In this document: positions 969 through 2,029 of the stretch, piece after piece
Layout: each line of letters begins with the position of its first letter
How positions within the stretch are numbered: the first letter of the stretch is position 1
From: a virus
Taxonomy: Duplodnaviria > Heunggongvirae > Uroviricota > Caudoviricetes
Length of the DNA stretch: 8,544 nt
Reading direction: 5' to 3' (one strand)
Virus record (IMG/VR): IMGVR_UViG_2703718859_000013
Program-made: the position numbers and the translations under genes
The notes under the pieces: model-generated
Databases searched by the model: none
Told to the model about the DNA's origin: nothing
The model's input: only the letters and a program-made list of their open reading frames with translations

Positions 969-1469
969 ATGCATTTGAATAAAGAGCATCAATCCATGAT
1001 GGGCAAGCGCCAGACAGAAGAGGCTGTTCGCGATCTGGAAAAACTACTTGGCTATCGTGAAACAAAACTGCTTTTCCTGGTTCCGGTTATTCGCCAGAAG
1101 GTTGAGGAAATTCTTGAAGAAAATGGCATCCCGAAAGAATACATGACGGATGCCATGGAATATTCACTCGAACTGGTACGAATTACTCCTGATCTGACCT
1201 GGCTTGATGAGTATCAACAACAATTTGAGAAAGGCGCAGAAACGTTACTTTCTGCTGCTGATAAAACAGAGCAGAAAACAGAACCATCGGTATTCTGGAA
1301 TACCGTTGAGGCTATTGCCAGGAGCAAGATATTTGAGTTTAACAACATCAATCATTCCGGGAGAGACACTCATCAATCATCACATCTTGAGGGGGTGTCC
1401 ATGCTTCTAGCTCTGTTGCGAGAGCAAGGCGAATGTCCTCAGTCGACATTGAACGACACTGAGCAATAG
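969..1469 (+). CDS. Hypothetical phage protein (166 aa); 3' end overlaps the convergent minus-strand ORF 1348..1638
   Basis: ATG 969 preceded by AGGAG at 958..962; acidic, protein-like composition; the C-terminal ~40 codons overlap a convergent ORF, so the 3' portion may be an artefact of a mosaic junction. Confidence 0.5.
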   Translation: MHLNKEHQSMMGKRQTEEAVRDLEKLLGYRETKLLFLVPVIRQKVEEILEENGIPKEYMTDAMEYSLELVRITPDLTWLDEYQQQFEKGAETLLSAADKTEQKTEPSVFWNTVEAIARSKIFEFNNINHSGRDTHQSSHLEGVSMLLALLREQGECPQSTLNDTEQ

Positions 1470-1638
1470 TCCATCCGTATTTTCCGGCAAGATAAAGATA
1501 TATTGCGTCAAAGCCATAAATAGTCCTTGGATACCCCTCTTTAATAGCCAGAGAGTCCCCGAAGCATTCAAGAAAGTAATTTGAGCGGGCTGTTTCGTAA
1601 TGAAAATTCCAGCGAGCCTGATTGAGTTTTTTGTCCAT
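1348..1638 (-). CDS. Hypothetical small protein (96 aa), opposite to the phage early operon (moron-like)
   Basis: Minus-strand ATG at 1638 preceded by a strong SD (GGAGGA, complement of 1642..1647) with about 5 nt spacing; protein-like composition; no family recognised. Confidence 0.55.
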   Translation of the reverse strand: MDKKLNQARWNFHYETARSNYFLECFGDSLAIKEGYPRTIYGFDAIYLYLAGKYGWTIAQCRSMSTEDIRLALATELEAWTPPQDVMIDECLSRND

Positions 1639-1771
1639 TTATCCTCCATTGTTGCTCTGTTTTGAAAAATGGAGACCTTCACGCTGCAACGTGAGGTCGT
1701 GCGCCGGACACGGGTAAACATCCGGTATTCAAAATTTAATGTTAACGAATTTTTAATATTGAGGTTATGAC

Positions 1772-2029
1772 GTGAACAACAAAATCAATATTCCTCTCGA
1801 AATTAAAGAAATTAACGAAATCATTGAGGTTACTGATCGCCCCGAGTTTACCCTCATGCACCGTTATGAAACGGGAACCGACGAGCAAAAATACATCATG
1901 GTTGCAGCATTGGCTGTGATGGCGATAGAAAGGGAGCGGAGGGAAAAGGACGTAATGGTTATTCCGGCGAGAAATGATTCACCGGATTTGAGATGGCAGG
2001 AGCCGGAGTGGGATGTGGCAATCCGGTGA
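1772..2029 (+). CDS. Hypothetical small protein (85 aa), GTG start
   Basis: Only long ORF over this interval; GTG at 1772 with GAGG at 1761..1764; an upstream ATG at 1766 hits a stop immediately; AT-rich promoter-like region upstream; no family recognised. Confidence 0.45.
   Translation: MNNKINIPLEIKEINEIIEVTDRPEFTLMHRYETGTDEQKYIMVAALAVMAIERERREKDVMVIPARNDSPDLRWQEPEWDVAIR

Follow-up and report, generated by a model that had tools for sequence, protein, structure and literature searches.

Lambdoid phages are characterized by mosaic exchange of modules and by opposite-strand 'moron' genes. For viral genes that overlap in antiparallel orientation through overprinting, an established approach relies on codon usage, the ancestral frame keeping genome-like usage and the new frame being atypical. 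Herein, both backgrounds are applied to an interval of an 8,544-nucleotide stretch of caudoviricete DNA (IMG/VR record IMGVR_UViG_2703718859_000013; the whole stretch is called the window, and all positions are counted in it unless another record is named), which carries three small open reading frames (ORFs): P166 and P85 on the plus strand, and M96 on the minus strand (Table 1). The locus is the early-right operon of a lambdoid prophage encoding Shiga toxin 1 (Stx1), and the three frames fill the accessory slot that separates its replication genes from the nin region. In nearly all loci, the relatives of P85 share their start codon with a divergent gene for a RAZR-like ribonuclease (RNase), a gene that this window appears to have lost.

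Among the closest described systems, RAZR, listed in PADLOC as PD-T7-4, is an abortive-infection RNase that combines a zinc finger with a DUF4145/HEPN domain, is activated by phage portal rings, and has catalytic Arg and His residues with R146/H154 spacing (PMC13017515). The TumE-TumA family, represented directly downstream of P85, is an experimentally demonstrated toxin-antitoxin (TA) system that targets translation (PMC10584680). Escherichia phage phiSTEC1589-Stx1c (PQ600364.1), induced from a human isolate of Shiga toxin-producing E. coli (PMC12029490), is 100% identical to the window over 900-2900 and about 98.8% identical over the whole window. The interval 900-2900 is intact as a whole in 11 of 5,426 complete E. 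coli genomes, the copies being nearly identical.

P85 and the RAZR-like gene beside its relatives

P85 matches phrog_8371 along the entire profile (residues 5-85 cover profile positions 1-81 of 81; E = 1.4e-55). Its ratio of nonsynonymous to synonymous polymorphism (pN/pS) is 0.17-0.19, and its codon-usage score of 0.238 is the highest of the locus. By these comparative measures, P85 is a genuine early-operon gene. An exhaustive profile search recovered three distant relatives, a scan of viral contigs recovered 29 loci with open frames at 37-52% identity, and a genome scan for the family recovered one Enterobacter prophage. In an alignment with relatives of 43-46% identity, the core motif DRPEF-x-L-x-x-RYE...QK...AL..IE is invariant, and the DRPEF core motif is present in 21/21 representative loci. 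AlphaFold2 predicts a three-helix core over residues 7-60 with a predicted local distance difference test (pLDDT) score of about 90, followed by a disordered tail, the overall pLDDT being 75. The initial annotation had recognized neither small protein, which no longer applies to P85, now placed in a family with a conserved partner; for M96, recognition extends to the weak ECs1072-family match described below.

That partner is a minus-strand gene of about 220 amino acids (aa), which lies immediately divergent from the P85-family gene in 47 of 55 viral loci and is also present in Shigella phage POCJ13, in loci L023 and L026-28, and in the Enterobacter locus. The 8/55 viral loci that lack it are all from the lineage of the window itself. 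The start codons of the two genes overlap in a single palindromic CATG in 50 of 51 related loci, so that the ribosome-binding site of each gene lies inside the first codons of the other. The loci sharing this CATG are L002 (2996-2999 of that locus), L029 (4012-4015) and 48 others (L023, L026, L073-L119), and span E. coli, Enterobacter and metagenomic viral contigs.

The architecture of the partner resembles that of RAZR. At its N-terminus, the POCJ13 protein carries four cysteines at residues 10, 13, 40 and 43 (CPHC..CRSC), the CPHC/CPFC element being conserved in all loci. The C-terminus matches DUF4145 (PF13643) with 35.6 and 41 bits in the two proteins tested, the cut-off being 23.1. An R-x7-H motif (RIDANKAVH) begins at residue 171. 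Two results weigh against the label: the match to the PADLOC model PD-T7-4 is weak (E = 1.4e-3, 16 bits), and a search of PDB sequences gave no match at E <= 1. The partner is thus best termed RAZR-like by architecture only, its tie in sequence being weak.

In this window, tblastn with the RAZR-like protein found no such sequence, and homology to POCJ13 starts at 1788, only 1-2 nucleotides (nt) past the site of the shared CATG. As read from these alignments, other DNA has taken the place of the partner, precisely as far as the CATG, and P85 is orphaned. Two small features lie at the junction: a new start for P85, drawn from the adjoining linker, and, on the opposite strand, a GAGGA that by its position is the leftover Shine-Dalgarno (SD) sequence of the lost RAZR-like gene. 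M96 was considered as a remnant of the lost partner and rejected, since it shows no similarity to the RAZR-like protein. A second lineage without a RAZR-like gene (L025) might have indicated that P85 is retained in its own right; it was not used, the start codon of P85 being unclear there.

P85, small, acidic and helical, may act as a regulator or an inhibitor of the RAZR-like RNase. In phages with the full pair, read-through from the promoter pR would run antisense across the RNase gene, and P85 would be made afterwards. Because of this order, P85 would be in a good position to silence the RNase, or to inhibit it, while the phage itself grows lytically, a tentative role that is less likely than not. 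Foldseek counts against the proposed function, since it matched the P85 model to nothing in PDB at E <= 0.001. Searches with P85 found nothing in Pfam, NCBIfam or PADLOC, and the P85-family profile gave only chance matches to PDB sequences (E ~0.7). Structure prediction and remote-homology comparison, which the initial annotation had proposed as a check, delivered a model for each of the two small proteins and a significant Foldseek match for neither.

The pairing raises the question of how a prophage carrying a portal-sensing suicide RNase spares its own lytic cycle. If the proposal is true, the inhibitor would keep the prophage's own portal ring from triggering suicide upon induction. The Stx1 phage would then have lost the RNase and kept the inhibitor against RAZR-like genes of co-resident prophages. 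P85 would be retained here, perhaps, through its action on the RNases that those genes encode. The window's Stx1 phage is in this respect a natural 'partner-only' variant.

The M96 frame and the overlapping end of P166

The ORF list contains P166, M96 and P85 exactly where the initial annotation had placed them. It likewise bears out the convergent overlap of P166 and M96 (1348..1469, 122 nt), the 133-nt intergenic gap between M96 and P85 (1639..1771) and the divergent orientation of these two frames, an arrangement that matches the one in related phages. The SD sequence of M96 had been ranked among the strongest in the window, a fair description: a census of AGGAG, GGAGG and GAGGA on both strands, requiring a start codon within 3-10 nt and an ORF of at least 30 aa, returned only six sites, namely three annotated genes, two evident shadow ORFs and M96.

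Codon usage is one of the measures by which M96 looks coding. Per codon, its log-odds score is 0.131 over the whole ORF; the 53 codons in the 206-bp segment outside other genes reach 0.125, and the overlap reaches 0.141. For comparison, the score is 0.106+-0.059 in annotated genes, -0.022+-0.055 with a maximum of 0.079 in the 13 open shadow ORFs, and -0.028+-0.044 to 0.060 in random open frames. The whole of M96 outscores every one of 1,859 random open 95-codon frames, and the unique half (53 codons) reaches p = 0.005 against random open frames. In addition, AlphaFold2 without an alignment gives a pLDDT of 75 and a predicted template modelling score (pTM) of 0.67, with pLDDT values of 84-96 over residues 21-80 and agreement among 4/5 models. 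Strand composition points the same way as in the minus-strand TA module: GC skew turns negative at about 1440-1620, and AT skew does so at about 1560-1740.

A possible family relationship was found with the ECs1072 family (NF033230), residues 41-86 of M96 matching profile positions 63-108 of 142 (E = 7.5e-6, 26.1 bits). The match crosses the 1474/1475 junction, each half alone scoring less, and neither the reversed M96 sequence nor the other frames match the profile. In a Smith-Waterman comparison with ECs_5703, a member from Sakai prophage Sp4 that lies on the minus strand between a cII-like gene and the O gene, M96 scores 45, a value reached by 6 of 2,000 shuffles. BLASTP of M96 against ECs_5703 returned nothing, and tblastn of ECs_5703 against the phage collection returned no match. 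Judged by its own cut-off, the ECs1072 family does not include M96. Furthermore, searches with M96 in Pfam, PADLOC and PHROGs gave nothing usable, and its model had no Foldseek match in PDB or BFVD at E <= 0.001.

Several results weigh against M96 as a gene. Among 5.8 billion proteins, its homologues are confined to near-identical E. coli copies and disrupted variants, and GenBank and PGAP annotate it in 0/11 genomes. Two related loci (L012/L013) have a 1-bp deletion at codon 3 that shifts the frame, IMG/VR record 2703718806_000010 (L011) has a stop at codon 91, and the protein variants P0002, P0004, P0005 and P0006 are disrupted. The NF033230 match falls far below the family cut-off (26 versus 70 bits, true members reaching 100-106), and hhalign gives the relationship P = 0.002 and a probability of 13%. 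The AlphaFold2 pLDDT stands without a non-coding-ORF control for comparison. Promoter prediction over 1600-2080 found none for M96 at the threshold of at least 9/12, the best matches being 8/12. Finally, pN/pS in the M96 frame is 0.7-2.4 in the overlap.

Separately, the L011 record carries an 11-bp tandem duplication (TTTATCCTCCA) of the M96 SD region, equivalent to 1634-1648, and a P85 stop at codon 33. Because of this duplication and the stops in both M96 and P85, the prophage copy in that record seems to be in decay.

These points give a real, though minority, chance to the explanation that M96 is a chance, functionless shadow ORF produced when recombination fused 206 bp of non-coding DNA to the antisense of the P166 tail, so that P166 and P85 are the only genes and no true gene overlap exists. 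The explanation draws on the missing GenBank and PGAP calls, the near-identity of the copies, the negative promoter prediction and the high pN/pS, as well as on disruption of M96 in seven of roughly nine haplotypes. M96 codon position 2 is the most variable in the overlap, with radical changes (L>P, C>Y, R>L), and six or more further ORFs of 89-213 aa stand unannotated in the window. This explanation does not readily accommodate a codon score higher than any reached by the 13 open shadow ORFs or the 1,859 random frames, with the unique half significant on its own, nor an SD followed by an ATG, a confidently predicted single-sequence AlphaFold model, and an ECs1072 profile score that comes from both sides of the junction. 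Moreover, the substitution data say little about intact M96, because the phages compared lack its 5' half and no constraint on its frame is expected there. On balance, M96 is probably a functional gene, now or until recently. GenBank and PGAP skip this gene-like ORF of 96 aa, probably through its overlap with a longer ORF.

The opposite possibility, that M96 is the sole real gene over 1348-1469 and that P166 ends earlier, its last 40 codons being accidental read-through, is quite unlikely. These last 40 codons (1347-1466) overlap M96, and their codon score drops to -0.007 from 0.220 for 969-1346; phages of the TL-2011c type stop at the equivalent of 1419, without the last 16 residues, and the plus frame is unconstrained over 1248-1346 (pN/pS 0.5-2.3). 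Against it, pN/pS in the tail is 0.24-0.30 in four lineages, values of 0.15-0.39 being found over 969-1247, and the stop at 1469 is kept in L005, L006 and L014. Among 26 distinct substitutions in the overlap, plus-frame codon positions 3/2/1 take 16/5/5, and 12 of the 16 third-position changes are synonymous, position 3 of the plus frame being position 2 of M96. As these substitutions show for the phages compared, the P166 tail is under purifying selection in the plus frame. The codon score of the tail, -0.007, is in keeping with a younger frame that arose by overprinting. M96 would be the older frame, and the C-terminus of P166 would have been overprinted on the 3' end of M96. This overlap may represent a naturally occurring case of overprinting at a recombination junction.

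Mosaic structure, borders and neighbouring genes

Breakpoints were mapped by blastn of the window against more than 20 related loci, and junctions were found at 1247/1271, 1474/1475, 1490, 1680/1681, 1725/1726, 1787/1788 and 2074/2075. By this mapping, at least six pieces joined by recombination make up the interval, which is not a single cassette. The initial annotation had suspected a mosaic junction near 1340-1470; the zone is indeed mosaic, and the unusual overlap coincides with module boundaries, but no boundary lies at 1340-1470 itself. One exception inside 1340-1470 is a deletion variant that breaks at about 1393. This variant of the same prophage (L021, GCA_001607685.1, and L022) joins the region of an O-like replication gene to about 1393, losing the DnaC-like, DUF1627 and DUF977 genes and most of P166, and yields a chimeric 109-aa variant of M96. 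There is no step in GC content across the junctions, and a search for direct repeats gave short two-copy matches that were taken as chance.

Table 1. Positions, strands and attributes of the features discussed in the text.
Feature	Position	Strand	Description
P166	969..1469	+	166-aa hypothetical protein; annotated by GenBank and PGAP, WP_062872333.1; phrog_25397, E = 2e-117
M96	1348..1638	-	96-aa ORF, ATG start; unannotated
M96 SD, GGAGGA	1647..1642	-	3-4 nt 5' of ATG
P85	1772..2029	+	85 aa, GTG start; acidic, pI 4.75
New P85 start features	SD GAGG 1761-1764; GTG 1772	+	With five new codons; from linker 1726-1787
Putative relic SD, GAGGA	1792..1796	-	Antisense to conserved Ile-Pro codons of P85; 8-codon frame follows
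Hairpin 1	1675-1697		Inverted repeat
Hairpin 2	1704-1725		Inverted repeat, stem CCGGA/TCCGG
Double-hairpin element	1681..1725	strandless	45 bp; 93-100% identity in many Stx phage records
GC-rich hairpin, GCGCCGCC..GGCGCGG	2045..2074	strandless	Between the convergent P85 and TumA genes
Module	1247..1474	strandless	88-93% identity to genes 3' of yfdQ, Stx2 phage early-left operon
Segment	1475..1680	strandless	206 bp; this prophage lineage only, 11/5,426 complete E. coli genomes
Linker	1726..1787	strandless	AT-rich, lineage-specific
Module	1788..2074	strandless	88-98% identity to POCJ13 and 75/02 Stx (Shigella phages) and to many prophages of E. coli
TumA-type antitoxin candidate	2080..2448	-	HVO_A0114 winged-helix; PF25212, 86.2 bits vs cut-off 27.6; PGAP start 2439
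TumE-family toxin	2441..2728	-	95 aa; PF20126, 53.7 bits vs cut-off 23.4; PGAP name

The pieces have separate distributions. The module containing the 3' third of P166, and on the opposite strand the last 41 codons of M96, has relatives in TL-2011c, P13374, PA2, VT2phi_272 and others. In Stx2 phages of the TL-2011c/P13374 type, this module and the double-hairpin element are contiguous, with 6 bp between them in place of the 206-bp segment. There they follow yfdQ and are oriented like the surrounding early-left genes. In a third type (L006, GER2), the sequence in common extends to 1490. The 206-bp segment supplies M96 with its SD, its ATG and its first 55 codons, and a distant blastn search with 1470-1790 found nothing matching it outside this lineage. 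The module with the body of P85 and its downstream hairpin travels with the zinc-finger/HEPN gene in relatives, and the TumE-TumA pair occurs with other neighbours, HigBA and helix-turn-helix (HTH) genes standing between P85 and TumE-TumA in L023. P85 and TumE-TumA are not a functional unit, because such modules intervene in relatives. That 1340-2760 is one imported cassette of about 1.4 kb and unknown function, present or absent as a unit, as the initial annotation proposed, is accordingly very remote: although 900-2900 occurs whole in few, nearly identical genomes, each sub-module is found separately in other phages with different neighbours, the P166 3' part sits in another operon in Stx2 phages, and HigBA and HTH genes separate P85 from TumE-TumA in L023.

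Hairpins recur at the borders of these pieces. The two inverted repeats between M96 and P85 are present as first reported, and the 86-nt stretch that holds them folds better than its shuffles (-24.9 kcal/mol, z = -2.6; 1/200 shuffles as good). Some part of 1470-1790 is matched by 74 phage records. The stem of hairpin 2 is invariant across Stx phage records, with changes confined to the loop, and in phage Evi hairpin 1 is rebuilt from other bases (CTCCAC/GTGGAG), the element lying there between genes of opposite orientation. The invariant stem, together with the rebuilt stem and its context in Evi, argues for a structural or DNA-level role of the 45-bp element at module borders, rather than a simple terminator. 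The hairpin between P85 and the TumA gene folds on the minus strand at -16.5 kcal/mol (z = -2.9), and 24-30 bp of it recur at two other module borders (L023, 4472-4501; L006, 4950-4973). An intrinsic-terminator scan, which calls a GC-rich stem with a T run, called neither the hairpins at 1675-1725 nor that at 2045-2074; hairpin 1, when read on the minus strand, is the only case followed by CTCCATTTTTC. The AT-rich stretch beside the repeats had been described as promoter-like; as a promoter it was rejected, no sigma-70 match of at least 9/12 occurring on either strand of 1600-2080 and the best reaching 8/12. The Rfam scan likewise placed no family inside 1300-2100.

Altogether, these observations are probably best explained by a recombination patchwork in which P85 was orphaned and M96 is an old, overprinted accessory gene. 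Recombination would have replaced the RAZR-like partner up to the CATG, giving P85 a new SD, a GTG and five codons. The replacement DNA would comprise three pieces: P166 with the 3' module, the 45-bp double hairpin and the lineage-only 206-bp segment, the first two of which are also present in the early-left operon of Stx2 phages. M96, which the 206-bp segment forms together with the P166 tail read in antisense, would be an old moron-type accessory gene on the minus strand, occupying the slot and orientation of the lost RAZR-like gene and divergent from P85. The C-terminus of P166 would then have overprinted the last 41 codons of M96. Most related phages would have deleted the 5' half of M96 (the 206-to-6-bp difference), only the plus frame staying under selection, and in this lineage both frames are still open, with M96 intact as a putative gene. 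P166 and P85 would be read in the N-antiterminated pR transcript during lytic growth, and M96 and TumE-TumA would be read from the opposite strand as accessory genes expressed in the lysogen, with the hairpins at 1675-1725 and 2045-2074 marking and insulating the module borders. A broader composite, in which the P85 family is a dedicated, CATG-locked partner of RAZR-like RNases and their lytic-phase inhibitor, P85 serves here in counter-defence, and M96 is live with a 3' end coding on both strands, is improbable when all of its parts are taken together.

The DUF1627, DUF977, P166 and P85 genes follow one another. Downstream of P85 lie the minus-strand HVO_A0114/TumE pair, two antirepressor genes, the genes from ninB to Q, and stx1AB; the findings on this interval have no bearing on Shiga toxin itself. 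The pair, which the initial annotation had counted as the downstream module of a cassette of unknown function, is identified by its Pfam matches as a TumE-TumA TA pair (PMC10584680), the two ORFs abutting or overlapping slightly (2441-2728 and 2080-2439/2448). A -35/-10 match of 10/12 lies at 2783-2755 on the minus strand of TumE-TumA. A 213-aa plus-strand ORF (2114-2755) runs antisense across both TA genes and, with a codon score of 0.019, is a shadow ORF. A minus-strand ORF of 60 aa (1959-2141) has AGGAG 3 nt upstream of its ATG and overlaps both P85 and the TumA gene at their 3' ends; it was also taken as a shadow ORF.

The antirepressor genes (3077-3742 and 3997-4629) are arranged in tandem. 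Their N-terminal domains differ (ORF6N and Bro-N), and their C-terminal halves are nearly the same (QPQFTAEEIILLCYMQLWMEKAQ ... RARQFEF). Directly 5' of the first gene, Rfam places isrK at 2842-2915 (54.9 bits) and C4 antisense RNA at 2941-3024 (71 bits), together with a sub-threshold c4-a1b1 target at 2829-2878; the predicted RNAs of 2829-3024 look like the P1/P7-type antisense-RNA immunity control of an antirepressor. Just 5' of the second gene, sRNA-Xcc1 is matched at 3866-3955 with 67.5 bits, above the gathering score. The small RNA STnc100 is matched 3' of stx1B (8394-8544, 98.3 bits), where it is cut by the window end.

Comparison with described systems

The TumE-TumA pair of the window is like the described systems in having both Pfam models above their cut-offs and an adjacent, overlapping two-gene layout (PMC10584680). 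M96 is like the ECs1072 family, represented by ECs_5703, in standing alone on the strand opposite to its neighbours within the early-right operon of a lambdoid prophage and in having no assigned function. It is unlike that family in its length (96 aa versus about 142-151 aa), in its partial coverage of the profile and in the absence of a pairwise BLASTP alignment.

As in viral overprinting, codon usage is typical in M96 and atypical in the P166 tail, the latter being nevertheless under purifying selection. Unlike the usual cases, the overlap is convergent, 3' against 3', and lies beside a recombination junction.

The partner of the P85 family is like RAZR in its N-terminal four cysteines, its C-terminal DUF4145 with an R-x7-H motif and its location in a prophage; unlike the RAZR system, the window itself contains no RAZR-like gene. 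The text available for RAZR describes it alone, expressed from its native promoter, with no mention of a neighbouring P85-like gene (PMC13017515), whereas the prophage RAZR-like genes considered here come with a P85-family gene overlapping their start in 50/51 loci. As far as that text reaches, RAZR has been studied as a stand-alone protein (PMC13017515).

With respect to lambdoid mosaicism, the window conforms in its sharp junctions at gene ends or start codons, in the opposite-strand accessory genes inside the early operon between replication and nin genes, and in the short hairpins that recur at borders. It departs from the usual pattern in that one junction falls exactly on a start codon common to two genes, and another leaves an antiparallel overlap of 122 nt with signs of coding in both frames. 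Mosaic junctions as such are ordinary in lambdoid phages; the CATG-locked pair of P85 and a RAZR-like gene, together with the dual-frame overlap, are the parts of interest.

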